35,839 nucleotides of DNA. It comes from Synergistaceae bacterium (lineage in GTDB: Bacteria > Synergistota > Synergistia > Synergistales > Aminobacteriaceae). The translations under genes were made by a program, and so were the position numbers. Where the stretch lies: assembly GCA_017447325.1 (NCBI GenBank), contig JAFSNU010000128.1, positions 1 to 35,839 on the forward strand, given 5' to 3'. The notes under the pieces are model-generated. The model was given only the letters and a program-made list of their open reading frames with translations. It searched no databases and was not told the DNA's origin. Shown here one piece after another: positions 3,020 to 26,044 of this stretch; the first letter of the stretch is position 1; the number at the start of each line of letters is the position of its first letter.

Positions 3020-3060
3020 TGCGGATACAGATATAAAACCATTTAAGGAGGAATAATAAA

Positions 3061-4701: not shown

Positions 4702-4965
4702 TCTTTATTGCACCTCTCTGTCATAGCCTGTTCAATAATATAATCTTTACTATTTTACAGCAGCCCGTACTTATGCATGGTATTTTCTACCCTAAAATTA
4801 TATTCTTCATCGTTAGTATCGCTTGAGTTCCTCTATATCAATATTAAAGTTGACTAAAATTGTATTATTTGTTAAAATAATTTTAATTATAGAAATACTA
4901 TTAGTAATAATTATCTCCTAGAATAGGGTTAATAAATAAGCTTATGGGGATGAAAGGAGCTAGAC

Positions 4966-6222
4966 TTGATGACAGACTGGGCTACACTGAACAAGGACGA
5001 GAACAAGGAGCTTTTGAAGCTATTCAACGATATTACTTGCGGCGAAAGCAGCACGTGTGCGCCGATTTTGCGAGAGGCTATTTTAAATCCCAATAAAGGG
5101 AGCATTTCCCGTTTAAGCTTAACAAGAACAGGCAAAAAATTTGAAGCTTTTCACAATGGATGTTGGGACTTTGTACATTATCAGCGCAAGCTATATAATT
5201 TTGATGCAAATGAGTTTAAAAGTGAAGGCTTCGTTATTGGCAGCCCTTGGCATGGGGATGTCCTGGAAGCACCCATTCTCTTCTTGAGTTCAAATCCGGC
5301 GATTACCCCTTATTGTCTTTTCCCGCGCTGGCATCCGGATAAAGATCCCCAAAAAGATAGCTTCTCTCTTGGCGGGACTTTAGGCAAAGTCGAACTGAAT
5401 TGTAAAGACGACGATGGTGATACTATTAGAAAATATAAAAATTCTATTTCGCAAGAAGATATTTATGACTTTTTCACGAATCGTTTTCAAGAGTCTCCGT
5501 CATTTATAGACCATGATGGCAAAGGCACAGCAGTCTTTAGCGTATGGGTTAGAGATGACAACAATCCTGCAAACTTCGTAAGAAGAAATGATGCTGTCAG
5601 CTATTGGCGAGGTATGCGCGATGTTATGCGCCTTTTATTGAATGGAGTTAAAGGAAATACTGTACCTTTCCAAGAAGATGAGTTGTGTGCTTTAATGCGG
5701 CCGGTTCTGAGTGCTGAGTTTGTGCCTTTTGGTTCGATGAACGAATATGGGCTAAATGATGAATTGATGAGTTATTACTGGGAAAATTTTGCATGGCCGC
5801 TTTTAAAAAATTGTGGCGCGAAGATTATTTTTTTGGTAGGCAAGTACGTCAGGGAAGCTTTTTTGAAGGCTGTACTTCAGGAGAAATATAAGAAGAAAGA
5901 TGATGATGATGATCCACTAAACTTAAACGGTAAAGTTTTGGATGTTGACGATTTTATTGCAAAAATTGAAAAAAATAAAAATAATAAAATTGTCAACGGA
6001 TATAAAGATTGGCTTAAAAATCACTGCATAGTCTTCATCAATAACCTCGGAGGGCGGGCACCAAAAAATTATGAGGCTGCTGTCGAATCATTGAGGACGA
6101 TGAACGATCCAATTATACAGGCAGCCTTACAGGGAGCTCGGGATCAGTACAAAAAAGCCTTAGAGGAAGCTAAAAAACGCAAAGAAGCCGAGACACAAAA
6201 ATCTAATAAGACCGAAAATTAA
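4966..6222 (+). CDS. Hypothetical 418-aa protein with a Lys/Glu-rich C-terminal tail; weak UDG-superfamily-like motifs
   Basis: Long ORF with an AAAGGAG SD and a hairpin terminator directly downstream. APILFLSSNPAITP resembles the MUG/UDG motif hhhhG(I/L)NPG. The late block IVFINNLGGRAP might correspond to UDG motif B. The fold assignment is speculative. Confidence 0.6.
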   Translation: MMTDWATLNKDENKELLKLFNDITCGESSTCAPILREAILNPNKGSISRLSLTRTGKKFEAFHNGCWDFVHYQRKLYNFDANEFKSEGFVIGSPWHGDVLEAPILFLSSNPAITPYCLFPRWHPDKDPQKDSFSLGGTLGKVELNCKDDDGDTIRKYKNSISQEDIYDFFTNRFQESPSFIDHDGKGTAVFSVWVRDDNNPANFVRRNDAVSYWRGMRDVMRLLLNGVKGNTVPFQEDELCALMRPVLSAEFVPFGSMNEYGLNDELMSYYWENFAWPLLKNCGAKIIFLVGKYVREAFLKAVLQEKYKKKDDDDDPLNLNGKVLDVDDFIAKIEKNKNNKIVNGYKDWLKNHCIVFINNLGGRAPKNYEAAVESLRTMNDPIIQAALQGARDQYKKALEEAKKRKEAETQKSNKTEN

Positions 6223-6228
6223 ATCTCA

Positions 6229-6254
6229 GGGGGAGTAAAATCCCCCGTTATTTT
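6229..6254 (+). terminator. Rho-independent terminator after the 4966-6222 gene
   Basis: GGGGGA (6229-6234) pairs with TCCCCC (6241-6246) around a 6-nt loop, followed by GTTATTTTG. Confidence 0.6.
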
Positions 6255-6300
6255 GAAAATCATTTACCCACTCTATATAATACTGATATTTATATATAAT
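6253..6300 (+). promoter_or_regulatory. Sigma70-like promoter(s) for the 6333 gene
   Basis: TTGAAA (6253-6258), a 17-nt spacer, then TATAAT (6276-6281). A second TATAAT is at 6295-6300. The start codon is at 6333. Confidence 0.45.
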
Positions 6301-6332
6301 ATAAATACAGATCACGAAAGGAGACAATTATC

Positions 6333-7043
6333 ATGGACGATAAGGCCGTATTAGAAAAATTTCTGAATTTTAATTTGGACTCAGCCGAAAACGTTTTGGC
6401 CGAGTTTGCCCGTCTGGATAATGCCAGGTATCAAGGCAGCACACACCCGTTGGAGAGTTTTGTTTATATCCCCGGCAGCAGGGAAGATCGGGTTTTACTG
6501 GTTGCACATGCTGATACAGTTTTTGGCAATCAGGGCAAGCATAAGATTATATTTGAGGACGGAAAATATAAAAGCGGCGAGCCTGACGTTGGCATAGGAG
6601 CGGACGACAGAGCCGGCTGCGCTATACTTTATCTGCTTAAAGATATGGGACACTCGCTTCTAATTACAAACGGCGAGGAACTTCACTGCCTCGGCTCTTA
6701 TGCAATTAAAGATTTCTATCCTGAATTATATGCTGAACTAAACGAGCACCAGTATATTATCCAGTTTGACCGGCAGAGAAGCCATGATTATAAAGTCTAT
6801 AACATTCCAGTAAGTTTGGAATTTAAGAATTTTATCGAGAAAAACACTGGCTACAGCGAACCGGACAAACGCTCCAATACAGATATTACTGTTCTGTGCA
6901 ACAAGATATGCGGCGTTAATCTGAGCATTGGCTATTATAGAGAGCATAAGCATGATGAATATCTTGTCTATGATGAGTGGAAACATACTCTTGATATAGC
7001 CAGAAAGATGCTCGAGGGCAAGCAGCCGAAATTTCCCTTGTAG
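6333..7043 (+). CDS. Compact M28/M42/M20-like Zn metallopeptidase-fold protein
   Basis: Metal-ligand pattern in the expected order: LVAHADTVF (HxD), GIGADDRAGCAIL (bridging Asp), NGEELHCLGS (EE) and a late His cluster REHKHDEY. GGAG SD before the ATG. Confidence 0.55.
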   Translation: MDDKAVLEKFLNFNLDSAENVLAEFARLDNARYQGSTHPLESFVYIPGSREDRVLLVAHADTVFGNQGKHKIIFEDGKYKSGEPDVGIGADDRAGCAILYLLKDMGHSLLITNGEELHCLGSYAIKDFYPELYAELNEHQYIIQFDRQRSHDYKVYNIPVSLEFKNFIEKNTGYSEPDKRSNTDITVLCNKICGVNLSIGYYREHKHDEYLVYDEWKHTLDIARKMLEGKQPKFPL

Positions 7044-7190
7044 CTCGATAATTATTAAAAATTAAAATATTATTGTAACTGCTAACGTTATAAGATAAGC
7101 CTCTTTATCTGTGATATAATTAACTACAAAGTTAATTATTATCGCGTTAATTAAGGAGGCTTTATTATATTTATTGGGCGCAGTAGAGAA

Positions 7191-8576
7191 TTGAACGAGC
7201 TACAACGCATGTATGAGCGTGAAGACTTTCAGCTCTTTATTCTTTATGGCCGGAGGCGCGTAGGGAAGACAAGCCTGTTAAAGGAGTTCTGCAATAACAA
7301 GAATTCGCTTTTCTTCTCCGCTGAACTTAACAGCAGCAGGGCAAATCTTGAAAAATTTTCTCAGAGAATCTTTCAGCATTACGGTGATCCTCGAGAAGAG
7401 CCTTTCGTCTCATGGGAGAGTGCGTTTCTCTATATTAATAATAGGCAGATGACAACGCGGCTTGTTCTAGTGATCGACGAATTTCCATATCTTGCGGAAA
7501 GTACTCCATCGCTTTTATCCGAACTTCAAAACGTCATTGACCATCATCTTCAGGAGAGCGGACTGTTTCTTATTCTCTGCGGCAGTTATATGGGATTCAT
7601 GGAGAAAGAAGTTCTTGGATCAAAAAGCCCTTTGTTCGGAAGACGTACAGGACAAATGCACCTGAAACCCTTTGACTACAGGACGAGCGCGGAGTTTATG
7701 GAAGGCTTCAGGATTGAAGAAAAATTCATGCTTTACGGCGCGTTTGGCGGTACTCCAATGTATTTAAGGCAAATCGACAGAGAAAAATCATTTAAAGAAA
7801 ATATCGTCAATTCTTTCCTGTTTCCTACAAGTTATCTTTACGAGGAGCCAGTCTTTCTTCTCCGTGAAGAAGTTCAACAGCCTGGAGTCTATAACTCGAT
7901 TATTGAGGCTATTGCCAGCGGCGCGTCAAAGGCCAGCGAAATTTCCTCCAAAACAGGAGAGGAGACCGCTAAATGCTTGAAATATATTAAGACCCTGCGC
8001 GACCTCGGTATTCTCTATAAAGAAGTTCCATTCGGAGAGAAAGACTCTTCGCGTCGGACGCTGTACGGCATATCAGATTTCCTGTTTCGTTTCTGGTATC
8101 GCTATGTGTTCAGCAACAGGACGCTTCTTGAAACGGACGCTCAGGAAATTGTCTGGCAACGCAAAATCGAGCCTGACTACAGTACTTATATGGGGCTTGT
8201 CTTTGAGCAGATATGCCGTGAATACCTTTTGCATCAGAACAGCGCAGGTAAACTTCCCATACTTTTTACTAAAATAGGACGTTGGTGGGGAACGGACGCA
8301 AAGTCTAAACGGCAGATAGAAATCGACCTGATAGCACAGGACGGAAAGGACACTATTTTCTGCGAGTGCAAGTGGCGGAACGTTCCGGCAGATATAAACA
8401 TGTTCAGGACGCTATGCGACAGAGCAGAGCTATTCATGTCAAATAAGGACGATAAAGGTCATATAGGATTTATAATCTTCTCAAAAAATGGCTTCACAGA
8501 TGACATCCTGAATGAAGCCAAAAGACGGGGAGATTTATTGCTTATTGGCCTTGCGGATCTTTTTAATAATAATTAA
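7191..8576 (+). CDS. Arch_ATPase/ORC-like P-loop ATPase fused to a DUF234-type PD-(D/E)XK nuclease-like C-terminus
   Basis: Walker A ILYGRRRVGKTSLL and Walker B LVIDEFPYL. The C-terminus IGRWWG...IEIDLIAQDG...IFCECKWRN carries a D...ExK nuclease-like motif. TTG start. Confidence 0.8.
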   Translation: MNELQRMYEREDFQLFILYGRRRVGKTSLLKEFCNNKNSLFFSAELNSSRANLEKFSQRIFQHYGDPREEPFVSWESAFLYINNRQMTTRLVLVIDEFPYLAESTPSLLSELQNVIDHHLQESGLFLILCGSYMGFMEKEVLGSKSPLFGRRTGQMHLKPFDYRTSAEFMEGFRIEEKFMLYGAFGGTPMYLRQIDREKSFKENIVNSFLFPTSYLYEEPVFLLREEVQQPGVYNSIIEAIASGASKASEISSKTGEETAKCLKYIKTLRDLGILYKEVPFGEKDSSRRTLYGISDFLFRFWYRYVFSNRTLLETDAQEIVWQRKIEPDYSTYMGLVFEQICREYLLHQNSAGKLPILFTKIGRWWGTDAKSKRQIEIDLIAQDGKDTIFCECKWRNVPADINMFRTLCDRAELFMSNKDDKGHIGFIIFSKNGFTDDILNEAKRRGDLLLIGLADLFNNN

Positions 8577-10151: not shown

Positions 10152-10200
10152 TTCAGAGGTAATGTGACAAAAATAATGGACATAAGAAAGGAGAGCAGTC

Positions 10201-10830
10201 ATGTTAGACAGGTTAGAGATAAGAGGAAAGGTAAACACAGCAATTTTTGCTACTCTAAGGTTGTTGAAGATAAGGCCATAGAACAGATATGCCGCATGTG
10301 CGACTACCCTTGCACCAAGGGCAGGGCTCGAACATACGCATCATGCCCGACGTTCATGCCGGAAAAGGCTGTACATAGGCACAACTATGAGGCTTATCGA
10401 TAAAGCAGTCCAGAACATCATAGGGGTCGATTTAGGATATGGAATCTACACGGTGAATTTAGAGCGTGACAAGATTGATTTTGAGAAGCTGGACGAGGCC
10501 GCTCATGCTGGCGAAAAAGTGTTAATACCAGTCAATATGAAGGATGGTTCTGTACTCGCTATAGGCAGGAGAAATGCTGATTGGAACTATTCTGCGTCAC
10601 ACGGAGCCGGATGCATTATGTCCAGAAGCTCTGCAAAAGAGAAGTTGAGCATGGAGGAATATCGCATGACGATGGAGGGTATTTACACGACCTCTGTCAA
10701 CGAAAGTACGCTGGACGAAGCTCCGATGGCGTATAAATCTCTGGATGATATTATAGACGTAATTTCTTAAACTGTGGATGTAGTTGACGTCATGAAACCT
10801 GTTTATAACTTCAAGGCATCCTATAATAGC
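10201..10830 (+). pseudogene. rtcB: RtcB RNA ligase remnant with frameshifts, an internal deletion and an in-frame TAA
   Basis: RtcB-like blocks are spread over different frames: LEIRGKVNTAIFA; VVEDKAIEQICRMCDYP; MPDVHAGKGCTIGTTM (read across frames); IGVDLGYG. The C-terminal part reads LIPVNMKDGSVLAIGRRNADWNYSASHGAGCIMSR...EGIYTTSV..STLDEAPMAYKSLDDII, then TAA (10768-10770), then TVDVVDVMKPVYNFKA. Total length is roughly half of a normal rtcB. Confidence 0.7.
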
Positions 10831-11167
10831 CATATCGAGCTCAAAGGCAACATATTTACAGCTTCAACTCTGGACACGAATTAGAACTTCATGAGTCAGG
10901 TCTTTGCACATGCATAAAAAGCTCATTGTTGAGACATGCAAATAACTTATAAAAGATTTCCCAGCGAGGTCACAAAAATATAAGCTCTTAGTTTAATGTA
11001 CGTAAATTAATCGGGGTCAGAGAAATGGCTTTATGCGCAGAATTTAGGCGAGGGCACAAAAAGAAGAGCCACCGGTTTAGATTATCATTTCTCAAACTTA
11101 AAATCGTGCGCTACCGTTTTAAATGAATTTTGAGGAAATGTAAATAATTTAACTTCCAAAATTAACA

Positions 11168-11265
11168 GAGTGCATTTAGTGCACTGCATTTTATAACTTT
11201 TAAAGGAATTTTTATTTTTATATTAATTAAAGAAGTTTTAAAATAACAGTGTACTGAGTGCATTT
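11168..11265. promoter_or_regulatory. Operator-like repeats upstream of the recombination module
   Basis: Hairpin/palindrome AGTGCA-TTTAG-TGCACT at 11169-11185. The 10-bp direct repeat GAGTGCATTT occurs at 11168-11177 and 11256-11265, each preceded by TAACAG. They sit in a 650-bp ORF-free AT-rich region. Confidence 0.3.
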
Positions 11266-11424
11266 GTTTATTTTTTCAGATAATGCTCACATTTATTACA
11301 TTTTTATGTATCTTATTTATTAATAAATATATGTACATCGGTCTCAAACTTTGATATAATTATAACTAATTTAAAGAAATTTACTATTTTTATTGATTAT
11401 GACTAGTTTTACAAAGTAAAGAAG

Positions 11425-11637
11425 GTGATGCAGTTTTCTCATGACCGTACAGTCCGAACACAGATATGCTTTATTACGCCAAACCAAGGCTCGAAACTCA
11501 TTAATGGCACGTGGCCAAAAAGTGAAAGGAACAATTCAGGTTTTTATTTACTCATTGAGCCAAACGGAAGTATCTCGGCTATTATTCAACCCATACACGA
11601 TGACTTAAGGACAATGAACAGCCTGATAACTCGTTAG
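11425..11637 (+). CDS. Hypothetical small protein
   Basis: ORF only, with a GAAGGTG SD-like sequence. It is the first gene of a co-directional, tightly spaced block. No recognisable motif. Confidence 0.35.
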   Translation: MMQFSHDRTVRTQICFITPNQGSKLINGTWPKSERNNSGFYLLIEPNGSISAIIQPIHDDLRTMNSLITR

Positions 11638-11639
11638 AT

Positions 11640-11876
11640 ATGCCGGAAGGCTGGATAGAAAGTTTTGATAACATACTTGAGCTGTTAGGAGAGGATTTTG
11701 AGATGTTAATGGAAAATACGATATTTCGTCTTTATAAGCGTTGGCAGACAAAACGGAAATTCCGCCAGCTCGTTGACTTAGATTATAGCAGAGTAAACAA
11801 AATAAACTCTGAAATGGACTTTCCTATCAGTGTTTTCTCAAATAACACAAAGGACATACTCACATTGAAGCGATAA
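11640..11876 (+). CDS. Hypothetical small protein
   Basis: ORF only. It starts 2 nt after the previous stop and ends 2 nt before the exonuclease frame begins. Confidence 0.35.
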   Translation: MPEGWIESFDNILELLGEDFEMLMENTIFRLYKRWQTKRKFRQLVDLDYSRVNKINSEMDFPISVFSNNTKDILTLKR

Positions 11877-11878
11877 CT

Positions 11879-12697
11879 TTGGGGCTTTACAGCAATATCA
11901 GCAATGTGGATTATCATTCTGGTCAAGGGCTATGTTCCAGCCATTTGAAGAGCTTATTACGCTCGCCAATGCAATATAAGAGATCTATTGAAAACCCTTT
12001 TAAGGAAACAGAAGCTATGCGAATGGGAAACGCCGTTCATTGCGCGGTATTAGAATCAGAGAGTTTCAGAGAAATGTATGTTGCGGTTCCCGAAGGAGAT
12101 AAACGTTCCAAGGCAGTCAAAGCGGCATAGGCAGAAATAGATGGAGATGGCAAAATCCCTCTATCTTTAGAGGATTTTAATTCTATACAGGGTATGGCTC
12201 GTTCTATACACGCGCACCCTTTTGCGGGAAGATGGCTTTCTGATGGGATAGCGGAGCAAAGCGGATATTGGATGCAACACGTTGAGGTTGATGAGCTTCA
12301 GACAGATATTCTTTGCAAATGTCGTCCATAGTACATTAAGGAAGCTGGAAGCCACTATGTTATCATCGACCTAAAAACGACAGTAGATGCTAACCTTGGC
12401 TATTTTAGTCATAAAGCATATTGGGATTACCAATATAATATCAGCGCAGCGCATTACCTCACAGGATTGGAAGCTATTCTCGGAAAACGCGCTCAAGGTT
12501 TTGTCTTTATCGTAGTTGAAAAATCCCCTCCTTACGCGGTAAACGCCTTTCAGGCTGGAGAGGATTTTCTTAATGTAGGCAAGGAGATCAACAGGGCATT
12601 ATATAAAACCTTTGCAAAGTGTCAGGCCAATAATGAGTGGCCTTGTTATACGGTAACACGACTGGAATTAAATCTGCCTAAAGGCGTAAGAATTTAG
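11879..12697 (+). pseudogene. Phage-type PD-(D/E)XK exonuclease (YqaJ/Cas4-like family) interrupted by two in-frame TAG codons
   Basis: A single frame runs throughout. It contains N-terminal NVDYHSGQGLCSSHLKSL, then KCRP*YIK...YVIIDLKTT (PD...D/ExK core with TAG at the acidic position), then FVFIVVEKSPPYAV. The TAG codons are at 12128-12130 and 12329-12331. Confidence 0.7.
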
Positions 12698-12708
12698 GAG
12701 GTAATCTT

Positions 12709-13131
12709 ATGAACGCTATTCAAACTATGAATAACAATAATCTGAATATGATGTTCCGCGACCCTGCGGCTGTATCCGCTGCTGAAAGTGCTAAAGCCCG
12801 AATTCAGTCTGCTTATATTGTAGCAATTAATAGACCCAGAAACTACGACAACGCGAGGCTGGAAATCTTAAAAGCATGTAGCAGACCCGAATTTGCTGAG
12901 AAAGCGGAGTATAAGAAGCCGACCGGAGGCGATAAATACATTTACGGGCCATCAATCTGTTTAGCTGAGCTCGCATTGCGCGAGTGTGGCAATATCAGCT
13001 ACGAGAATCAGGTCGTTTTTGATGACGATAATGTACGGCGTATCCGAGTAACCGTCACTGACATTGAGAGTAATGCGACCTTTAGCAAGGAAATTCAACC
13101 AATGGGTTGGGTAAGCATATCAGCGAAGTGA
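12709..13131 (+). CDS. Phage-associated protein, possibly a C-terminally truncated annealase-like partner of the exonuclease
   Basis: GGAGG SD and a position immediately after the exonuclease. The block CSRPEFAEKAEYKKPTGG..IYGPSICLAELALRECGN looks like a conserved phage family that I cannot name. The 140-aa ORF ends in TGA and is followed by ORF-poor sequence. Confidence 0.35.
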   Translation: MNAIQTMNNNNLNMMFRDPAAVSAAESAKARIQSAYIVAINRPRNYDNARLEILKACSRPEFAEKAEYKKPTGGDKYIYGPSICLAELALRECGNISYENQVVFDDDNVRRIRVTVTDIESNATFSKEIQPMGWVSISAK

Positions 13132-13410
13132 CTACCGCTATCATTATTGAATTAGATCAGCAACGTTTTGTTGATAATTTGCTGGCATGCGATCTCGCGC
13201 CGAAATTTGACCTTATACAAACTTGTCTGCGCGAGATGTATGAGAAAAGAAATTGCGGCGTCACTATTAAATAACACGAGGAATATTAAGAACTCATTTA
13301 TGAAATTTGCAAATAATAAGGATATAAAATGAAAAAAGGACGTAGTTTAGCTATGTGAAATCAACAATTAACGCCTCTTGCACTTTGGACTGGACAAGGA
13401 GATGCCTTAG

Positions 13411-13593
13411 ATGCCAAACAAATACCAAATACTGATTACAGAAACATTACAAAATATAGTCATCGTAGAGGCAAATAATGAGAAGAACGCCCTTGCCAGT
13501 GTTGAGAACGAATTGAAAAACTCTGAGTACATATTGAGTTCCGAACATTTTACTGGCGTAAAGTTTCAAGTCATTAATAAGGATGTGATCTGA
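13411..13593 (+). CDS. DpnD/PcfM-like small protein
   Basis: The 60-aa sequence YQILITETLQNIVIVEANNEKNALASVENELKNSEYILSSEHFTGVKFQV fits the DpnD/PcfM pattern. Its position just upstream of a giant MTase-helicase gene is typical of conjugative elements. Confidence 0.55.
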   Translation: MPNKYQILITETLQNIVIVEANNEKNALASVENELKNSEYILSSEHFTGVKFQVINKDVI

Positions 13594-13966
13594 TGGAAAT
13601 TATAAAGAGAACCCCATATGATGTCTGAAACAATGGCAGATCTGAAAACTTCTAAAATTATGCCGGGGCGTTTCGTAGTTACAGGCGAATATCCTGACAC
13701 AGCAAAAGTTCAAAATCAGTATAGTCCGAAGTGGACAAAGGAACGATCTATAAAATAAAACAGAAAGGCTTTCATCAAAAAAAACAATATCTATAATACG
13801 CAGATAAATTTTGATTTCTGGGCAATCGAGGAACACTACAAGGGTACATCAATCAACAAACGTTCCAGACAAAGAAAAGATAATCAACACACGCCGGTTC
13901 AATTAAGTTTTGACTTTGATTCAACAGGAACAACAATCTCTTTCCCAGATTTAAAAATTTAGATAT

Positions 13967-16892
13967 TTGAGAGACAAAAAAGATGAGATAGTCTCAACAA
14001 ATCCAGTTATGTCCGATCATCTTAAAATCAACTATCGAATTATTGACGATAAACTCGGATTTGCCGGAGCGAAGACAAAGTTCTCACGCAATATTGATAT
14101 TATATGCACTCTGAAAACTATCGAGAAAGAGAACAGACTGGCTAATCTTCAAGAACAGGAAATTTTATCGAAGTATGTTGGGTGGGGAGTTTTACCGCAG
14201 GCATTCGATGAGCATAATGAGGTATGGCATCGTGAATATAGCGAGTTAAAAAGAGTTCTGACCAACGAAGAATACAAGGCCGCGCGAAGTTCTACTGTAA
14301 ATGCTCACTATATCTTGCCTACGATTGCTCGAGCCATGTTTGATGCTTTAGAACGTATGGGGTTTTCAAAGGGCAACATTCTTGAACCATCTTGCGGCAA
14401 AGGAAACTTCTTCGGTGTTCTTCATGAGAGTATGAAAAATTCCAAACTATACGGCGTGGAGCTTGACAGTATAACAGGACGGATTGCCAGACAGCTCTAT
14501 CAAACAGCGGATATCGCCATTAAATGATATGAAAATACTCATTTCTACGATAATTGTTTTGACGTCGCGATTGGTAATGTCCCATTTGGGAATTATAAGG
14601 TTGTTGATGCCGAACACAAGTACGACAGGGATAATTTCAGAATACACGATTATTTCTTTGCCAAAACGCTGGACAAGGTACGCCCCGGAGGCATTATCGC
14701 CTTTATCACATCTAAAGTAACTCTTGACAAGTCAAACCACTCTGTCCGCCAATATCTGGCGCATAGAGCTGATTTATTAGGAGCGGTGCGCCTTCCCAGT
14801 GACGCATTTAAGGATAACGCTGGGACGGAAGTAACAACGGATATTATTTTTCTTCAAAAACGGGATTATCTTATAGACGATATTCAACTTGAATGGCTGA
14901 ATATCGCGCCAAACCGTAATGGAATACCTATTAATAACTATTTTGTACATCATCCTGAGATAGTTTTGGGAACGATAATTCAAGAGTCCAAGCTTTATCA
15001 TGGCAACGAAAAAGAGACATTGTGTAAACCTTTTAAGGGAGGCAATCTTGATGAAAAGCTCAGGACAGCATTAGGGCATATACATGGACAGATTACAAAC
15101 AAAGGAATTCAGACAAATGGGACATTGGCAGATACAATTCCAGCCGATTCCAACGTGCGTAACTTCAGTTATACTCTTATAGATGGAAAACTATATTATA
15201 GAGAAAATTCCGTAATGTATACGCCTGATCTTTCAATATCGGATATGGCTCGCGCAAAAGGAATGGTAGAATTAAGAGACTCTTGCCGGTCTGTTATTGA
15301 TGCACAGATCGCAGGAGATGATGACGAGAAGTTACATACTTTTCAAAATCAGCTTAATGATATCTACGATTGTTTTGTCTCCAGTTATGGCCGTGTCAAT
15401 GATGCTGTTAATGCGCGGGCTTTTAATGAGGACAGTTCTTACTACTTGCTATGCGCTCTTGAAAACATGGATGAGAACGGACGCTTTATCGATAAGTCTG
15501 ATATGTTTACTAAGAGGACTATCCGTCAAAGCAAAATTCCAAATTATGTAAATAACGTTCAGGAGGCTTTGTTATTATCAGTCTCAGAAAAAGCCCGTGT
15601 ATATATGTCTTCATTGACCGGAATGACTGAGAAAAAACTGATCCAAAACCTCAAAGGCGAGATATTCAGGCTTCCATCTGACGGCGAAGCAGCCGTATAT
15701 TTAACGGCGGACGAATATTTGTCCGGCAACGTCCGTGAAAAACTGGAGATTGCCCTAATATACGCCGAACAAGAGCCTCAACTTTACGAGAGCAACGTCG
15801 AGGCTCTTGAAAAAGTACAGCCTGTTCCATTAACAGCAACTGATATTGATGCTCGTTTAGGCGCTATATGGATTGTCCCAAAGTACATTCAAGATTTTAT
15901 CTATGAGCTTTTGCAAACGCCTGATTATATCAAACATATAATAGAGGTCAGCTATTCTCAAGTAACTTCTATGTGGAATATATCAGGAAAATCGGTCGAT
16001 TCTGGTAATGTTTTAGCAAACACAACCTATGGTACTTCTGAATATAAACGCTTATAAAATTATCGAAGAAACTTTAAACCTTAAAACGGTAAAAATATTC
16101 AGAAACGAAAAAGACGCTGACGGGAAATATAAGCACGTTCTCGACACAGAGGTCACAGCAATAGCCCAGCAGAAGCAGGATGAGATTAAACAAAAATTCA
16201 GGGAATGGATTTTTGAGGATTCTGATCGGCGGTGTGTGCTTATTGAAGAATATAGTAAGCGTTTCAATTCTACCCGAGCACGGGAGTATGACGGAAGTCA
16301 TCCGCACTTTGAAGCTATTAACCCTGATATTCATCTTAGAGAGCATCAGAAAGACGCTATTGCCAGTATTTTATATGGCGGGAACACTTTACTTGCACAT
16401 GAGGTTGGAGCTGGTAAAACTTACGAGATGGTAGCTGCGGCAATTGAGGGGAAACGTTTATGATTATCTCATAAAAGCCTTTTTGTAGTTTCTAATCATC
16501 TGACAGGGCAGATGGCTGCTGAGACGCTAAAGCTATATCCGGGTGCTAATATCCTTGTCGCCACAAGGAAAGACTTTGAAACCCGTAATCGTAAGAAGTT
16601 CTGTGCGAGGATTGCTACAGGCGATTATGATGCGATTATAATTGGGCATAGTCAATTTGAAAAAATCCCGGTATCAAGGAAACGTCAAGAATGCTTTATT
16701 CAGGAGCAGATTGACGAGATTACAGATGGAATTAAAGAATTACGACGGCCATTTCCTCAAGCGGAAGAACTCAGAGAAAAATCCGCGCGTCTGGCAAGGC
16801 TCAATATCGAGTTAACAATGCCTGAGCAACAAAACGCAGCCTCCAAAACGTCAACGGATAATTCTGATGATGATATGGTCACTACACTTTAA
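13967..16892 (+). pseudogene. Giant conjugative-element N6-adenine DNA methyltransferase/SNF2-type helicase, degraded by 2 in-frame TGA codons, 1 frameshift and a large internal deletion
   Basis: MTase motif I ILEPSCGKGNFFG and motif IV AIGNVPFGNYKV, followed by IHDYFFAKTLDKVRPGGIIAFITSK. Helicase motif I LLAHEVGAGKTYEM. TGA at 14525-14527 and 16461-16463 with the frame otherwise continuous. A frameshift near 16035-16045 separates TTYGTS from NINAYKIIEETLNL. After DAIIIGHSQFEKIP...QIDEITDGIKEL the sequence jumps to a C-terminal-type tail and stops, so the helicase C-domain is missing. The 5' end may also be decayed (13618-13966). Confidence 0.85.
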
Positions 16893-17010
16893 AAACTACA
16901 TCTTGGCTCGAACTGTAAACTTTTAGTCTTTATTTATATCACACATTATATTATCAGCGTCTTGTTTTATAATATAAAAATGCGAGATCTACATAAGGAG
17001 GCTTTATAAC

Positions 17011-17307
17011 ATGGAAAACAAAGAATATGTTGTCCTCATGGAACAGGCTCGAAAGTGTGCTCAACAAGTAGGAAGATTATATATGGATTGGTATAAGGAC
17101 GGTTCCTTTTCCAAAGAACTATCTGAAAAAGAAACCGATTTCCTGAGTGATACCGATTTTCGTGCCGGGCTCGCACCTTGTCTATTCTGGGAGTTCAAAA
17201 GGCTGAAGTTGTGGAACTCAATAGACGATAATAATTGGGATATATCCTGCGACCTAGCAATGAAAAGTGCTTGGTACATATTTCAAGAACTAAAAACTCA
17301 AAAGTAA
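17011..17307 (+). CDS. Hypothetical protein
   Basis: 98-aa ORF with an AAGGAGG SD and an upstream TATAAT-type box. No recognisable motif. Confidence 0.5.
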   Translation: MENKEYVVLMEQARKCAQQVGRLYMDWYKDGSFSKELSEKETDFLSDTDFRAGLAPCLFWEFKRLKLWNSIDDNNWDISCDLAMKSAWYIFQELKTQK

Positions 17308-17353
17308 TAAAAATGTAATATCAATATCATCAGAGGAAGAAGCCGTCAAACGC

Positions 17354-17590
17354 TTATTCCTCTGGACGTTTAGGTTCGGGCAACGGGCCGTTTTCCCTCT
17401 CATAGTTCTTTATTTCGTTCTGAACAGCGCGGATCATGAACGAATTAAACGACTCATCATAGATAGCCGCCAGAATCTTGCCCTTGAGAAAGATTTTCTC
17501 GTCAATACGGACTTGAGTAAATACGGTCTTGCTTTCTTTTACCGCACACCCACGTCCGTTCCTAATTTGTTCCTGCATTCTACATTCCAT
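17354..17590 (-). CDS. Putative ribbon-helix-helix (CopG/Arc-like) DNA-binding protein
   Basis: TVFTQVRIDEKIFLKGKILAAIYDESFNSFMIRAVQNEI fits a beta-strand, helix, helix RHH layout. The true start may be an internal Met. Confidence 0.4.
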   Translation of the reverse strand: MECRMQEQIRNGRGCAVKESKTVFTQVRIDEKIFLKGKILAAIYDESFNSFMIRAVQNEIKNYERENGPLPEPKRPEE

Positions 17591-17686
17591 CCTTTCTTAA
17601 AGTAATTGACAAAAGGTAATATTTCTACTTAAATATTTCCAGTTGTAAAGTAGTTAATAGTAATAATAGGTTAATAAGGTTTTTAT

Positions 17687-18136
17687 ATGTTCAATTCAAG
17701 CAATACGAATGAATATGTTGAGGAGCTTGGAGCTTCGTACCGAATTTGCATGGTTACTGGATTACTTCTTCTTGGAGCTTTTTTCTACTTTACTTTTTTT
17801 GATCCATCGGCGACTGCTATGCACAAAAATGGAACAGGTATCACCTCAACTTTAGTCTGTTTTGCTCCTGCTGTAAGCGGGGCGATGATGTTATCGTCTG
17901 AATCACTGGGAACGTTTCCTGAAACACTTGTGACCGCGGCGTTGATACTTCATCTTCTTTCCATGATCTGGATAACTATTCATGTAGTCAAGAAAGTACC
18001 GGTTCCTCATAACGCGATCGTTCTTATAACACGCGTTTGGATCTTCGCTTCCATCGGGCTTTTGATTCTAGCGATCGTTTTCTTCCTGTTTACCATGTTA
18101 CATAACGGTGGCAGTAACAATGACAGGAGACGGTAA
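17687..18136 (+). CDS. Integral membrane protein (about 4 TM helices)
   Basis: Four long hydrophobic segments and a basic C-terminal tail, DRRR. Confidence 0.55.
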   Translation: MFNSSNTNEYVEELGASYRICMVTGLLLLGAFFYFTFFDPSATAMHKNGTGITSTLVCFAPAVSGAMMLSSESLGTFPETLVTAALILHLLSMIWITIHVVKKVPVPHNAIVLITRVWIFASIGLLILAIVFFLFTMLHNGGSNNDRRR

Positions 18137-18170
18137 ATCTTGTTATTAAAAGGCCGAGCTGCAAGTATTT

Positions 18171-18198
18171 TTGTGTATTAGCTCTTTTTATATATAAT
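18171..18198 (+). promoter_or_regulatory. Sigma70-like promoter for the Sel1-repeat gene
   Basis: TTGTGT (18171-18176), a 16-nt spacer, then TATAAT (18193-18198). GGAGG is at 18206-18210 and the ATG at 18217. Confidence 0.4.
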
Positions 18199-18216
18199 AT
18201 AAATTGGAGGCTCGTC

Positions 18217-18876
18217 ATGGGTAATTTTATTCAGTTCGCAGTTATATTTGTACCTGCAATATTTATTATTTATATTATTATTCAATTTTTCATGCGCCCT
18301 AATTTGAAACAATTATTTGCAGCCGCAGAGCGCAATGACCCTGAAGCTCTATTTCAGTTGTCGCAGTGTTACGCTTCAGGCAACGGAGTAAAACCAGATA
18401 CGCAGAAAATGCTGCAATGCGGTATACGTGCTGCCGAACTCGGTCATCACAAAGCTCAAATAGTACTTGGGCTTATATATAGAGATACAAATGATATACA
18501 GAATGCTGGAAAATGGCTTTGTGAGGCAGCAGAAAAAGAGCTGCACCGTGAAGCTCCTTATAGCGGCGCAATACGAGAGTTCGGGAAACTCTGCTACGAT
18601 TTTGCTAAGAACTACGACGGTAAGATTGACGGGACGTGGCTATTGCAAATTGCTGCATGGCGTTTTAAAGATCCCGAAGCTCAAAACATAGTTGAGCGCA
18701 TAATGGACGAAGATCCATTTATAGTGTTTTCAGTGGGGGTACGGTATCACCTACCAAAAGACTCTGTCGATATATCTAAAATTTCAACTGAAGATATGAT
18801 GCGCGATATGGCAGAGCTCCCTGATGAATATATTACTTCTCCAGAAGATGTTGATGAATTTTTTAAAAATTTATAA
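18217..18876 (+). CDS. Membrane-anchored Sel1-like repeat (SLR/TPR-family) protein
   Basis: N-terminal TM helix FAVIFVPAIFIIYIIIQFF. Sel1-type repeats DPEALFQLSQCYASGNGVKPD and AAELGHHKAQIVLGLIY. Confidence 0.7.
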   Translation: MGNFIQFAVIFVPAIFIIYIIIQFFMRPNLKQLFAAAERNDPEALFQLSQCYASGNGVKPDTQKMLQCGIRAAELGHHKAQIVLGLIYRDTNDIQNAGKWLCEAAEKELHREAPYSGAIREFGKLCYDFAKNYDGKIDGTWLLQIAAWRFKDPEAQNIVERIMDEDPFIVFSVGVRYHLPKDSVDISKISTEDMMRDMAELPDEYITSPEDVDEFFKNL

Positions 18877-18900
18877 TAAAACTAAGGGCGGATAGACACT

Positions 18901-20337
18901 ATGACGGAAATACATAATGATGATGCAACATCGATTATAATCCAGCAACATAAAGATTTGACGGATGCAGAGAAGGAGGCTTACATCAAGCTCTGCAAAC
19001 GTAACATTATCAATCATGTCCAGAGGTCGACAGGTTTTTCCGATATTGACTTTAATAAAGTCGATATTTATACTGAGACCTTTATCTCAGAGGTATATTA
19101 TATAATAGCCATATCTCCAGAGACAGTGAACGTTACAGGACGTTTACCATCTTCCCCCGATCATACTATAGTTGCAGACTCCCAAGAATTCGGAAAAAGC
19201 CTAATTGCTTTAGGTGCAGCTGATTTGCAGAATGAAACATTGAGAAGTCAACTTGAAGAATCACTGCTGAAACATTCCTATGGAGCAATCACGGAACAGG
19301 TAAAAATCTACGAAAATCCTCATGCGTTTCTCTTGCATAACATTTGCCAGAGTTGCGCGGGACATGGAAGCCTGCGATGTGAGCTTTGCGGGGGACGCGG
19401 GGAGTATCAATGCGATAAATGCAAAGGCAGCGGACAGGTAAAATGTCCTTGGTGTCGTTGAACAGGAAGGCATTCTAGTGGAAACATATGTGATGCTTGC
19501 AACGGAAGAGTATACACAACATGCGAAAAATGCCACGGAAGCGGACGACTAACTTGTAATCGTTGCGGGGGCAGCGGCGAACTCCAGTGCACTCATTGTG
19601 ACGGGACGGGTTGGTTCACAACTATAGGCCGTTCTGCTTTAGTTGTTAGTCCTAATTTTTCCACAGTTGCAAGCCAGAGTGCACATGCTTCCTTTCCTGA
19701 CATAATAAGGCGTATTGGCGTCCCCAATTTGTCGAGATATGCCGATGTTTCCTTCTATGACAGCATGACGACACAAGATAATGCGTTACTTGTTCGTTTC
19801 CTTTGTCGTCTGTCTTTTGCCGAAGCGACGGTGAGCATCAAGGGCAAAACAAGCCAATGGTTACTGTCAGGAAAATATGGAACAATTCTCGACGCAGGCG
19901 GTGCGATGGACAACATTCTGGAAGAAACGCTTTCTGATCTGGAAATTAACTACGTTCCTTGGTTAAAACCTTGGGCTGAAGCACGCGCTAAAGTCGCAAA
20001 TTTCATTAGTTTTGACATAAACAGGAAGATTATTGAAAAGAACCTTGAAGAGGACAATCCACAAGCCATACAAAAACTTTTAAACGGCAGCGTGTCGGAT
20101 AAGTACATTTCAGAAACTATTGATAGATTATCAGCTGTGTTCTCGAAAATCAAGGAAAATAATTATGATTTTTTTGCAGTATTTTTTTCTATTTTCCCTA
20201 CTTTTGTAGCTTTCTTACTCCAATCGTTTTACGCCAAACTGTGGCCGCAACATAGGGTTCCGTTCACTATACTTAGCATTTGGAGTGCCATGCTTGTGTG
20301 CTTATCTTATCACTTTCTTTTTAAATGGATGGTATAA
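18901..20337 (+). pseudogene. Protein with eight DnaJ-type CxxCxGxG zinc-finger motifs and a hydrophobic C-terminus, interrupted by one in-frame TGA
   Basis: ORFs 18901-19461 and 19729-20337 share one frame, with a single stop at 19459-19461. The motifs are CQSCAGHG, CELCGGRG, CDKCKGSG, CPWCR*TG, CDACNGRV, CEKCHGSG, CNRCGGSG and CTHCDGTG. The overlapping ORF 20285-20497 may be the original C-terminus after a shift in a T-rich run. Confidence 0.7.
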
Positions 20338-20523
20338 TTCAAAAGAGCGAGAGCTCCTTTTCCGATGGAGCAAGAAAAAGGAACAACTGATGAAAGTTCC
20401 TGATACAGAAAAGACTGTCTTTGAGAGAGTATTTGCTATGACAATATTAGCACCGGGCATCATTTTATATATTTGCTTCTTACTCTATATTCTGTAAAAT
20501 CTGAAGACTAAAAGATTTTTACT

Positions 20524-20552
20524 CCGTAGTTAAAAACTATGGGGTATTTTTT
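20524..20552 (+). terminator. Possible rho-independent terminator
   Basis: CCGTAGTT (20524-20531) pairs with AACTATGG (20535-20542) with one G-U pair, followed by GGTATTTTTT. Confidence 0.4.
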
Positions 20553-20768
20553 ATCTTTAATCAAGGACTATGCCCTTCTTTATTATTATTATCTTGAAAT
20601 AGTTGATCCAGCATAACACTTGTATCTCGATAGCGATCTTCTAAATTGTCCTTGCTGAAAAGATTTAATTATATTTAATAAGTTAAATATATAATATATT
20701 TTATATATTTTTTATTAATTTTTAATGGTTTTATTTATTAAAATATATATATAATATATTTAATTTTT

Positions 20769-21437
20769 TTGTTAATAGACACCGATGCACAATGTAATAG
20801 TACTGGATTTTACGAGGCTAAAACAAAAGGAGAGGCGACTATTTTAGACATATTTTGCGGAGATATGTCGGCCAGCGAGTGCGTTCAGCATACGTGTAAA
20901 GTGGATATTATACCTTCCGATAAATTGCTTGCAGATGCGGAAAATATGGTGAAAGTTGATGAACGTCGATTTACGCACCTGAAACGCTCGTTAAAGTCCG
21001 TTGATAAACTCTATAACTATATCATCATGGACACGCTCCCAGCGATCGGCGTTGCTCTTAAAAATGTTTTAGGCGTAGCTCAATTTGTCATAATTCTTGT
21101 CGAGGAATCAGGTTGTGCTCTTGATGGTCTTATGGATTTTGCAAACGCTCTTGAACTTGCTAAAGATAACAATGACGAGTTGACAGTAGCAGGAATTCTC
21201 ATAGTAAGGGCAAAGGATCGAACAAGAAAATCAAAGAGAATGAGAGAGTTGGCAGATACTATTGCCGAAAAGTTAGGGACAAAACAATTTCAGACGAGAA
21301 TTCGTGAAAGCGTAGTCTTCGCAGAGGCTTTAACTGAATACTATGTACCGCTTTCCGAATATGCACAGAACAGCACGACAAATAAAGACTATAAAGCATT
21401 TGTTGATGAACTCATAGAGGTGATTCGTAATGGCTAA
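20769..21437 (+). pseudogene. parA: ParA/Soj-family partition ATPase lacking the N-terminal Walker A segment
   Basis: Starts at LIDTDAQCNST (the A' motif). Walker B is YIIMDTLPA and the C-terminal half is ParA-like. The roughly 40 aa carrying KGGxGK(T/S) are absent and replaced by pure AT-rich sequence. Confidence 0.7.
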
Positions 21438-21734
21438 AGGGAATTATACGAGTAAAGCGGCTCAGAACGTGGCACAATTCGCAGAAGGAAAATTACAGGA
21501 TACATTATTTATAGCCAAATATGAAAAAAACGCCCTGGGAGGCCTTGTAAGAGCGCATTTCGCAAAATTTCTCTTTCTATACCAGCTGAACTTTACGAGG
21601 GGTTGGAGTTCGGTCCTTTTTTCTTCAAGGGAAACAAGACCGCCTATATTAATAATCTTATTCGCAAGGATTTAGATCGTAACCTTGATAAATACAGGGA
21701 ATTTAAAGCAATGATGATGGAGAATAAAGAATAA
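21430..21734 (+). pseudogene. ParG/RHH-type partition partner with a frameshift at an A7 run
   Basis: MAKGNYTS...AKYEK is in one frame. After AAAAAAA (21524-21530) a second frame reads KRPGRPCKSAFRKISLSIPAELYEGLEFGPFFFKGNKTAYINNLIRKDLDRNL...ENKE and stops at 21732-21734. The ATG overlaps the parA stop. Confidence 0.5.
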
Positions 21735-21812
21735 CAGAGAAATAAATATCTGTTAAAATAAATAGCATAATCTATTGTTTTTAGTTTTCAAGAAAAAGGA
21801 GAAAAGGATCAC

Positions 21813-22088
21813 TTGGACAAAAACATCGCAAAACGCAAAGCAGAATTACGCGAACAATATCCTGATAGTGAGGCAATAGGGAGAGCGACGATTCTGGATT
21901 TAATTAATCACAAAAAATCGGCTGGAGATACACGTCAATATAAAAAAACTATCAAGCCGGATGAAAGGTTGCTTCTGCATGATGTACTCACGGCGAAGGA
22001 CTGGGAAGTTTATAATGGTTATGTCAGGCTGCGCTTGTCTTTCAACATACGTTCAGTCACGGATTTTATCGAATTCTGTATTTCTTAA
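21813..22088 (+). CDS. Hypothetical protein
   Basis: 91-aa ORF with a TTG start after AAAGGAG. No recognisable motif. Confidence 0.4.
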   Translation: MDKNIAKRKAELREQYPDSEAIGRATILDLINHKKSAGDTRQYKKTIKPDERLLLHDVLTAKDWEVYNGYVRLRLSFNIRSVTDFIEFCIS

Positions 22089-22216
22089 ATCCTGCAATAA
22101 TGGGCCTAAGTGCTTAATGTGACAGTACGGATTTAAATTATCAAAATTACAGTAGAAAATGCGAATAACAACTTCTTTTAGTCGAACAAGGACTAAAGAC
22201 TATTTGGTACACCCTC

Positions 22217-22581
22217 GTGTTGGAGCCTTTAAAAGCTATATATCGTTATGACTTTGCCATAGAATTACTGACAAAGCTAAGCGGATTCGATCTTGATCTT
22301 GATGTATTTAGGCCGAACATCACGGAATGCGAAGAAAAAATTAAGGACATGCAGGAAGAAATGATAGTTTTGTATGATATCATACAGGTCTATAAAAAAA
22401 GCAAAGTGAGGATAAAATCGAAATATCGGTCAAAATACCGCGAACACTAAAAGAACTTGGCAACCAGGACTTAGATGAGCTTCAACCTTCGCAGATAGTA
22501 CGCGAAGAATTTAAAGGTTTTATCAACGATGCATCAGGAATTGGCAGTTATATTGTTGATAAGATTTTACAAAGACCGTAG
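22217..22581 (+). pseudogene. Hypothetical gene apparently split by a frameshift at an A7 run
   Basis: ORF 22217-22450 ends in an implausible KSKVRIKSKYRSKYREH tail. After AAAAAAA (22394-22400) the +1 frame reads KQSEDKIEISVKIPRTLKELGNQDLDEL...DKILQRP and stops at 22579-22581. Confidence 0.35.
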
Positions 22582-22761
22582 GTATAACAATTGACAATTA
22601 AAACAAGGACAAACAAATTAGGAAATCTCGAAATGTTATCAATCAGGAGTTAGGGAGAATCAAAAACGCGAGTGAAAACGCTACATCTGATTTGCTTTTT
22701 TTATTATAATATATTTTAAATGGGGCGCAAACTACACGCCCAGCTCAATGTTATTAATAGT

Positions 22762-23271
22762 TTAATGCCGTCCGAACGGAAACTTAATGTACTGCCTCAC
22801 CCTGTTCCGAATAACGGATACAAGCGTCCCAAAGTTTTCTTCGTCATTCATCTCGGCGATTTTAATTGAGCCGTCAAAATCTTCTATTAATACGTCTAAG
22901 CTACAGTTAATCAAATCTTCAATATCCAGCTTAGGATTGTATTCGCTATTTCTTTTAAGACAAACACAGCTATCATTCCTGAGGCGACACCCAAGCCCCC
23001 CAAGCTTTTCACCCAGTGATTTATTTACGTCACACTTTCAGTCGCCCGTAGCAGTCTCCGCACAAAGCAAGCGGTCAAATCCTAACGCTTTAAGCCCCGC
23101 TGTTTCAATCGCTCCGAACGGCACGCCATAACTTTCTTCTTTGATATACAACCCATGCTGTTCTGAGAACTCGCAGAACTTGCTCCTGTCTTCTTCCTTC
23201 AGAATATAACACGGGTCAGTAATAACAACAGCTTCGACATGATACGCTAATCTCGGTGTGCTTTTAAAGAT
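22762..23271 (-). pseudogene. Decayed hypothetical gene with no canonical start and an in-frame TGA
   Basis: The minus-strand frame after AGGAGG reads IFKSTPRLAYHVEAVVITDPCYILKEEDRSKFCEF...ETATGD*KCDVNKSLGEKLGGLGC...DFDGSIKIAEMNDEENFGTLVSVIRNRVRQYIKFPFGRH, ending in TAA. The TGA is at 23038-23040. The only start-like codon after the SD is ATC (23269-23271). Confidence 0.5.
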
Positions 23272-23524
23272 AGAAAAATACCTCCTGAAATTTAATTAGG
23301 TAGATTTTTGAAAGGGTTTTTGTGTGCTGCTCTTTTGAGTATTGATAAATTATACAATAAAAATTTTTATTTATTAAGCTTTGTTTTGTCCCGCAATATT
23401 CTGGCGCAAATAAGCGTTTTTTTGTATTTATTATATGAATGCCTAAGCAATCAAGCGCAATCCTTTTTTATTGCGTACTCTATCTCGGCTGCTGCTAATC
23501 GCTGGGTAATAAGCGTTCCATTTT

Positions 23525-24701: not shown

Positions 24702-24754
24702 ATATACATCTTTTTGAAAGAAAAATCAAGTTGAGAAAAAGGAGACAAATTTTA

Positions 24755-26044
24755 ATGAGCGATAATCAAGAGTTTTATTTAATTAATGCTTTTGCTGATG
24801 CCGTCGGTATCGCTGCCCAGAATTTAAGAAGATTAGACAGGCGCGGGGTTTTTAAGCCTCATCATGTAGATGAAAAAGGTCGCCGTTATTATTCGCGCGA
24901 ACAAATCGCAGAAGTTGAGAAAATAAGAGACAAAATTAATCCGCGCAAAATCACCCCACCTGTTGAACTCCGTGAACGTTTAGGATATGGGCGAAAAGAT
25001 ATAAGCAAAGTTGTCGGCTGCGGGATTGAAAATTATGAAAGAGGAATAACTAATCCTTCGTTAGAATTTATCGAGGATTTAACTAAAATCTATGAAGTCC
25101 CCTTCGCGGAAGTGCAAACTGCTTTTGACGCCGTGCGTAAGCCGTCAACCCGCAAGACGGATTTTGAAAATGCAAAAGCCGAAGTCATGCCTAACAGATG
25201 GGACAAAGAGACAATGACTGAGCCGATGCGTATTCGTAACGAGGCAGGGTTCACGCGTCCGTTTGTCTGCGATTTATTAGATTTAACCGAACACACATTA
25301 TTTGGGTATGAAAAAGGAGATATCCCCGTCACGCTTGAAGTTATCGAGGCGTTGACAAAAATATATGATGTCTCTTTTATAGTTTTGCAAAAGGCCTTTG
25401 ACAGTCTGCGCGATTCGCAAGAGGGCAAGAAAAATTTTAATAATATTATCGCGGTACAAAGTCAAGGCGTGTCAACGCCCGCTGAGCTGCGCTTTCAATC
25501 GAAGTTGACAGCTAATCAAATTAGCGAGGCCTTGGAAATAACGTTGGCTGCATTGACGAGATATGAAAATGGTTCTTGGCCTGTCCCCTTAAAAGTTGCA
25601 GAAGATATGGCAGCTTTATATAACATATCGATTAATGAAATAAGAAAAATATTCGCGCCTCTCAGTAAGATGCCGGAATTAGAAGATGTGAAATATCTTG
25701 ACAGGGTAAGCATTTGGGAGAAGAGCATTACTCAGCCCATGGCTTTACGTCAAAGAATAGGTTTTTCCCGCCAGCAAGTTTATAAATTTATTGGCGTCGG
25801 ACACGCAGCCCTTACGCGTTATGAAAAAGGCGAGAGCGAGATACCTTTAGATGTTGCGGAAGATTTAGCAAAATTATATAATGTTACTATAGATGAGATA
25901 AGAAAAGTTTTCGCGTCTGTCCGTCGGCCTCGTCAACGTAAGCCGAATTTTGATTTATTAACAAATATCCGCCGGAAAGATTTTAAAAAATTAACGGAGG
26001 AGTTTCGGCAAAAATACAAACAAACGACAAACAATGATTTTTAA
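24755..26044 (+). CDS. Multi-HTH DNA-binding protein: an N-terminal MerR-type HTH plus four tandem XRE-like HTH repeats
   Basis: The MerR-like N-terminus is YLINAFADAVGIAAQNLRRLDRRGVFKP...GRRYYSREQI. Four repeats of about 85-90 aa follow the pattern (E/A)LR...G(F/Y)(S/T)R...(L/I)...YE(K/R/N)G...P(S/V/L)...(I/A)E(D/A)L(T/A)K(I/L)Y(E/D/N)V...E(V/I)(Q/R)K(A/V/I)F. The track start (TTG at 24731) is probably too early; the ATG at 24755 follows AGGAG. Confidence 0.75.
   Translation: MSDNQEFYLINAFADAVGIAAQNLRRLDRRGVFKPHHVDEKGRRYYSREQIAEVEKIRDKINPRKITPPVELRERLGYGRKDISKVVGCGIENYERGITNPSLEFIEDLTKIYEVPFAEVQTAFDAVRKPSTRKTDFENAKAEVMPNRWDKETMTEPMRIRNEAGFTRPFVCDLLDLTEHTLFGYEKGDIPVTLEVIEALTKIYDVSFIVLQKAFDSLRDSQEGKKNFNNIIAVQSQGVSTPAELRFQSKLTANQISEALEITLAALTRYENGSWPVPLKVAEDMAALYNISINEIRKIFAPLSKMPELEDVKYLDRVSIWEKSITQPMALRQRIGFSRQQVYKFIGVGHAALTRYEKGESEIPLDVAEDLAKLYNVTIDEIRKVFASVRRPRQRKPNFDLLTNIRRKDFKKLTEEFRQKYKQTTNNDF

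Follow-up and report, generated by a model that had tools for sequence, protein, structure and literature searches.

Every in-frame TGA in an apparently decaying element of a Synergistaceae bacterium falls where a glycine is expected, and this raises the question whether TGA is, or once was, read as glycine there, or whether ordinary mutation has placed the stops. The element lies in contig JAFSNU010000128.1 (assembly GCA_017447325.1), of which a stretch of 35,839 nucleotides, hereafter the window, was analysed; the window is a metagenomic contig, and the contigs matching it come from ruminant gut samples. An earlier note, made from the letters alone, had pointed out the coincidence and proposed two readings, of which it favoured gene decay dominated by G:C to T:A transversions over inheritance from a donor with TGA as a glycine codon. 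When coding frames were assigned with translation table 11, four internal in-frame TGAs were found inside real coding frames, beginning at 14525, 16461 and 19459 on the plus strand and at 23040 on the minus strand, and all four coincide with glycine in the aligned homologues (40/40, 40/40, 5/5 and 2/2, respectively), just as the earlier note had claimed. They are very probably single G-to-T transversions of GGA glycine codons in decaying genes, with a bias of this transversion towards GG doublets contributing to the pattern. For 14525, 16461 and 19459 we infer GGA as the ancestral codon, and at 23040 a GGA/TGA polymorphism was seen directly. The affected genes are pseudogenes and would be dead irrespective of their TGAs, as the region is also marked by frameshifts, large deletions, TAG or TAA stops and the loss of a start codon.

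Two of the four TGAs interrupt a pseudogene for an N6-adenine methylase with a SNF2-type helicase (13967-16892, plus strand), which was delimited by alignment to homologues of 63-67% identity and by tblastn of the homologues P0001, P0003 and P0007. Besides TGA 14525 and TGA 16461, the gene carries a +1 frameshift near 16040 and has lost about 630 amino acids to an internal deletion. In tblastn searches against the closest homologues the frame is unbroken across both TGAs, and the alignments of P0001 and P0003 that run from 14012 and 14030, respectively, to 16042 place TGA 14525 within a single frame. This codon (14525-14527) occupies the invariant glycine of a block with the consensus xGFExT, in line with the GFE block named in the earlier note, and the second (16461-16463) aligns with the glycine of KRLGL ahead of SLFVVPNHL, likewise as predicted; both are best read as GGA to TGA changes. 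Inspection of the relatives' DNA (n = 82) revealed GGN at the first site in 80/82 and at the second in 82/82 sequences, and TGA in none. TGA 14525 is present in all six other assemblies covering the site, and TGA 16461 is fixed in six other assemblies. Two valines suspected of replacing conserved glycines in the same gene do stand at such columns, with GTT at 14189-14191 (probably from GGT) opposite glycine in 34/37 homologues and GTA at 14717-14719 (probably from GGA) opposite glycine in 33/40.

The deletion could be mapped by tblastn to a junction near 16745, which links residue ~777 to residue ~1409 of P0007. It joins ...GIKEL to (E)ELRRPFPQAEELREKSARLA... (window 16734-16829), apparently between two short similar stretches (KEL and EEL), and the rest of the helicase is lost. 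Methylase columns beyond residue 940 were left out of the analysis. A TAA at 16890, considered as another glutamate-to-stop change, was discarded, as tblastn assigned the sequence past ~16745 to the far C-terminal part joined by the deletion. At columns conserved to at least 90%, the methylase deviates in 6.6% of cases, a sign of relaxed constraint; the range is 1.4-5.1% among the eight relatives nearest to it and 0.9-8.6% when all forty are taken. The genes of the closest methylase homologues have 53-60% GC, and their synonymous sites are saturated; together with the identity of 63-67% this means that ancestral codons can be deduced only at conserved columns.

The third TGA lies in a gene for a protein with CxxCxGxG motifs (18901-20337, plus strand), a single frame of 478 codons whose sole stop is TGA 19459-19461. 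The protein contains exactly eight such units. Unit 4 reads CPWCR-TGA-TG, with the stop at the first glycine of the motif, a column that is glycine in 5/5 distant homologues, and the description given in the earlier note was thus accurate. Unit 5 reads CDACNGR followed by GTA (19510-19512). The other seven repeats and one homologue support the view that this valine replaces an invariant glycine, but the unit is one residue shorter in the remaining four homologues, which makes the column of the second glycine ambiguous. Both TGA 19459 and GTA 19510 were found in all eight other assemblies. The family is rare, with only eight database proteins at E≤1e-5; the best five homologues have ~590-620 amino acids, 23-28% identity, no Pfam annotation and a C-terminal hydrophobic region.

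The fourth TGA allowed a GGA/TGA difference to be observed directly. It interrupts a small open reading frame (ORF) on the minus strand (22762-23295) to which no function was assigned, at 23040-23038 (...ATGD-stop-KCD). Its homologue P0130, 62% identical, reads TGDGS at this site, coded GAC GGG, which bears out the suggestion that a glycine had followed the TGD. The contig L015, assembled from another sample and 99.8% identical, departs from the window at only two neighbouring bases in 1052 nt: the coding strand has GAA GGA in L015 (positions 621-623) and GAC TGA in the window (23040-23041), with GAC GGG in the outgroup. As the two contigs are nearly identical, the GGA/TGA difference must have arisen inside this population. 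The difference could reflect two independent G:C to T:A hits or one tandem substitution in either direction. The two forms, CT and AG, are mutually reverse complements. The same ORF has also lost its start codon: the ATG of the related prophage L016, nine bases after AGGAGG, is replaced by ATC at 23271-23269.

A perfect coincidence of in-frame TGA with conserved glycine is also what genes from a donor using table 25 (Gracilibacteria, Absconditabacteria and their phages) would show, their inherited sense codons having become stops, and the stops of the element, which are mostly TAA and TAG, would fit such an origin. In the window as a whole TAA or TAG ends 33/35 tabulated ORFs, in agreement with the earlier note, and TAA is also the stop of three further host genes in the ~3 kb adjoining the window. 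TGA terminates only the host gene tsaE (33329-33778, plus strand, TGA at 33776) and a DpnD/PcfM-like gene of the element (13411-13593, plus strand, TGA at 13591). Both had been taken for natural ends, and this was confirmed by Pfam coverage, with TsaE matched over residues 7-135 of 149 and relatives in its cluster of 147-149 amino acids, and PF14207 matched over residues 5-50 of 60. At 40-45% GC, two TGA stops in 35 ORFs are few (binomial P 0.003-0.02 if 20-25% are expected).

Against such a donor speaks the density of TGA, which takes only 4 of about 131 glycine codons in the affected genes (127 are GGN) and none of the 208 glycine positions in a further 14 intact ORFs, located in the element or next to it and not belonging to the host core (0 TGA in 3,997 codons), whereas code-25 elements have high TGA densities (PMC10746230). 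The search for a donor lineage that the earlier note had suggested was carried out and gave Synergistaceae and Clostridia metagenome-assembled genomes (MAGs) as the source of the closest methylase proteins; the best 80 species-representative GTDB loci were mostly from Bacillota, with one Synergistaceae, one Flexilinea and no Patescibacteria. These relatives code the glycines as GGN, and none has TGA at either methylase site. In addition, TGA ends the DpnD-like gene of the element itself and 4/33 genes of the related prophage L016, in which no internal TGA occurs; the difference at 23040 arose within a 99.8%-identical population, and the glycine-to-valine sites would be left unexplained. The donor reading is therefore extremely unlikely. 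A different possibility is that the host or the element decodes the UGAs, by a glycine-inserting suppressor tRNA or programmed read-through, and that the genes are still fully expressed. The only stop in the 478 codons of the CxxCxGxG gene is a TGA, and the genome seldom uses TGA as a stop (2/35 ORFs), which would suit this idea. However, not one in-frame TGA occurs among the 2,954 codons of the host core genes, 227 of which are glycine codons, and tsaE ends at TGA with relatives of equal length. A tRNA scan and an Rfam scan of the window detected no tRNA gene and no Rfam match. The methylase-helicase moreover has a frameshift and a 630-amino-acid deletion, the ORF at 23295 is without its start codon, and the zinc-finger gene has a further glycine-to-valine change in the unit next to its TGA. 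We consider active decoding as highly improbable as the donor. Selenocysteine was rejected as well, as the sites are glycine in all homologues, not cysteine or selenocysteine, and the window gave no Rfam match. As the source is a metagenomic assembly, the stops might finally be sequencing or assembly errors, but the TGAs, the TAA at 10768 and the TAG at 12329 recur at 99.7-99.9% identity in five to eight contigs of independent origin, obtained from different samples with different assembly pipelines, which leaves this explanation a next to negligible probability.

Therefore, TGA=Gly coding is not supported at this locus, and the host and its relatives behave as organisms with the standard code. 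A screen for alternative codes in more than 250,000 genomes makes no mention of Synergistetes (PMC8629427). That the TGAs are traces of UGA-to-glycine decoding in a wider sense, from a past code-25 host or from glycine insertion tolerated in the Synergistaceae lineage, is very unlikely; if it were true, full-length product would still come from the eight-fold zinc-finger gene at least.

With single G-to-T changes in GGN codons sufficient for all TGA and glycine-to-valine sites, we asked whether the mutation spectrum agrees with the transversion-driven decay that the earlier note had favoured. For the methylase, deviations of a single nucleotide step at columns conserved to at least 90% were counted (n = 25), leading to nine G:C to A:T, six G:C to T:A, five A:T to G:C, two G:C to C:G and three other changes. 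Polarised single-nucleotide polymorphisms (SNPs) among the assemblies (n = 136) comprised 52 G:C to A:T, 37 A:T to G:C and 18 G:C to T:A changes, and those of the element only (n = 23) comprised 11 G:C to A:T and seven G:C to T:A changes. G:C to T:A is thus substantial, accounting for 24-30% of changes within the element and for 13% when all SNPs are counted, but not dominant, G:C to A:T being commoner in every set. The earlier reading was right in kind and overstated in degree; it also missed the sequence context, and one of the stops on which it drew, TAG 12128, turned out to be a G-to-A transition.

The context is what the spectrum check added. All 11 inferred G:C to T:A changes at GGN/CCN-type sites lie in a GG doublet on one strand (four glycine to stop, three glycine to valine, two proline to histidine, one threonine to asparagine and one methionine to isoleucine). 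In an unbiased set, gathered from the methylase and the exonuclease without reference to the TGA/glycine finding, 8/9 G:C to T:A changes fell in GG/CC doublets, which make up 38.6% of the opportunities (p = 0.003). The exonuclease family alone gave seven deviations, none of them a clear single-step G:C to T:A change, too few to inform on the bias. Among the polarised SNPs, 10/18 G:C to T:A changes were in GG/CC doublets as against 34% (p = 0.047). At conserved glycine codons we counted seven G-to-T, two G-to-C and no G-to-A changes.

Without such a context effect, the four TGAs would be a plain coincidence of nonsense mutations that all happened to hit GGA, by luck and codon abundance. GGA is indeed the largest single precursor class, with 52/227 of the codons one step from TGA in the affected genes, and context-free models put the probability that a given TGA derives from GGA at 0.23-0.37; the pattern was also spotted post hoc, among many that could have been. 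On the other hand, four out of four has a probability of only 0.003-0.018 under these models, the same genes also changed glycine to valine three times and proline to histidine twice, and the conserved glycine codons show G-to-T without a single G-to-A. We therefore regard pure coincidence as unlikely, although less so than the decoding explanations above. An enhancement of GG sites by 2.5-10 fold lifts the probability of four out of four to 0.05-0.45.

The same low context-free probability also weighs on the transversion explanation, which for this reason leans on a GG bias that itself comes from small numbers. Other observations count against it too. Transitions were found in GG doublets in 7/11 cases, and a Fisher test of these against the transversions gave p = 0.09; the presumed first-position G-to-T steps at 12329 and 10768 lie outside GG doublets; the two neighbouring differences at 23040-23041 may have arisen together as one tandem event; and the ancestral states at conserved columns were deduced from a consensus whose homologues share only 53-67% identity.

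The formation of the four stops by G-to-T change of GGA may be explained as follows. Prophage genes no longer under selection would accumulate frameshifts, deletions and point mutations. As G:C to T:A changes in this lineage seem to prefer GG/CC doublets, GGN (glycine) and CCN (proline) codons would be their main targets, and GGA is the most frequent one-step precursor of TGA in these genes. That all four TGAs stand at glycines would then be due to the abundance of GGA combined with the doublet preference, and one process would yield glycine to stop (GGA to TGA), glycine to valine (GGN to GTN) and proline to histidine (CCN to CAN). Guanine oxidation favours GG doublets, and 8-oxoguanine (8-oxoG) gives G:C to T:A changes. 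The preference may be the product of guanine oxidation. The lesions resemble the 8-oxoG-type nonsense decay of prophage remnants, as seen with weak MutY/MutM, in the kind of changes (GGA to TGA, GGN to GTN and CCN to CAN), in their occurrence in genes with frameshifts and deletions and in the preferred doublets, but differ from it in that G:C to T:A does not predominate (6/25 fixed differences, 7/23 SNPs of the element and 18/136 of all SNPs). With table 25, the locus shares the coincidence of in-frame TGA with conserved glycine and differs in its very low TGA density, in the TGA stops of host and element genes and in a Synergistaceae host. The case is thus one of ordinary pseudogene decay, with a modest and plausible context bias. 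In annotation, the ORFs should be entered as pseudogenes of a dead prophage whose code is the standard one, not as evidence of recoding; the case cautions that in-frame TGAs can coincide perfectly with conserved glycines without any departure from that code. If the GG-doublet bias is genome-wide, it would give a modest clue to the mutational environment or the repair capacity of uncultured rumen Synergistaceae.

The other stops of the element had been proposed to be former glutamate or aspartate codons, which was borne out only in part. A RecE-like exonuclease pseudogene (11879-12697, plus strand; DUF3799, PD-(D/E)XK; Pfam DUF3799 E = 2e-33, RecE structure 3H4R E = 2e-30) is stopped by TAG 12128 and TAG 12329. 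The latter stands at the aspartate of the RPD motif of the RecE-type nuclease (3H4R), a residue conserved in 70/70 homologues. Starting from aspartate, two changes were required to reach this stop, and one of the two is a G-to-T at the first position. TAG 12128, in contrast, is TGG in all six other assemblies, and tryptophan is also the commonest residue of the column, so that it is a private tryptophan-to-stop G-to-A transition in the strain of the window, which indicates that decay is still going on within the population. The third stop, TAA 10768-10770, lies in an RtcB remnant (10164-10818, plus strand; Pfam RtcB) with two frame changes and most of the protein deleted; its three-frame translation gives KVVEDKAIEQI in one frame, RIMPDVHAGKGCT in the second and IGTTM... 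in the third. The TAA is opposite a glutamate in the PDB entries of archaeal RtcB (P. horikoshii-type), which all represent one distant homologue and thus suggest a former glutamate only weakly.

Downstream of the exonuclease follows a truncated single-strand annealing protein (12709-13131, plus strand), identified by tblastn of a 310-amino-acid (311-codon) homologue from an Acinetobacter phage. In that phage the homologue adjoins an exonuclease VIII gene, the pair being the same as in the element of the window. The homology stops at 13098, and TGA 13129, which we considered as a fifth in-frame TGA, lies beyond this deletion junction; it was rejected as a chance stop and is not comparable to the other four. 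Further losses are the P-loop of a ParA-like gene, the frame of an RHH-like gene, the catalytic aspartate of the exonuclease and the zinc-finger glycines of the CxxCxGxG protein. The statement in the earlier note that frameshifts and deletions accompany the nonsense codons was therefore correct, applying to the methylase-helicase, RtcB, the annealing protein and the RHH-like gene.

Taken together, the region of 10.1-26 kb is in all likelihood the remnant of a prophage, decaying in the chromosome of a standard-code Synergistaceae bacterium of the rumen. It adjoins flagellar basal-body genes and dnaA, and a megablast of 10-24 kb against plasmids gave no match. L016, an intact prophage on a Logan contig (SRR17284444), shares with it a protein with a MerR domain and four HTH repeats, a Rho_N-domain protein, ArdC and a 171-amino-acid protein that is 62% identical to the 23295 ORF of the window. 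The nuclease module of L016 is of the Cas4/PDDEXK type and that of the window of the RecE/DUF3799 type. While L016 keeps integrase, holin, endolysin and uninterrupted ORFs, the copy in the window has lost its integrase and lysis genes and carries many lesions. The shared MerR protein (24731-26044, 437 amino acids), in which four HTH_3/HTH_31 repeats come after the MerR domain, corresponds to positions 4628-5923 of L016; its gene adjoins the integrase in L016, whereas the copy in the window has no integrase beside it and lies only ~400 bp from flgI.

The right third of the window contains the host genes flgI, flgH, flgA, two rod genes, mreB and a gene for NAD(P)H-hydrate dehydratase, as well as tsaE, a guaA subunit and dnaA. 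Host MreB and TsaE fall into 90%-identity clusters whose named members come from Synergistaceae MAGs. The presence of dnaA places the locus in the dnaA region, presumably close to the origin; the gene (34983-35839) runs off the window end and codes for 460 amino acids in longer contigs. The guaA gene (33974-34927) encodes 317 amino acids with the ATP-pyrophosphatase and the C-terminal part only, and a glutamine amidotransferase domain is missing from its surroundings. The genes at 10-8576, to the left of the remnant, have the flavour of a defence island. There are two ORFs of 418 and 236 amino acids without family match, a 258-amino-acid protein with the FtsZ C-terminal domain only, a microbial PARG, an AAA+ protein matching IetA of PADLOC (1e-45) and a DUF234 ATPase matching the candidate system PDC-S27 (6e-60).

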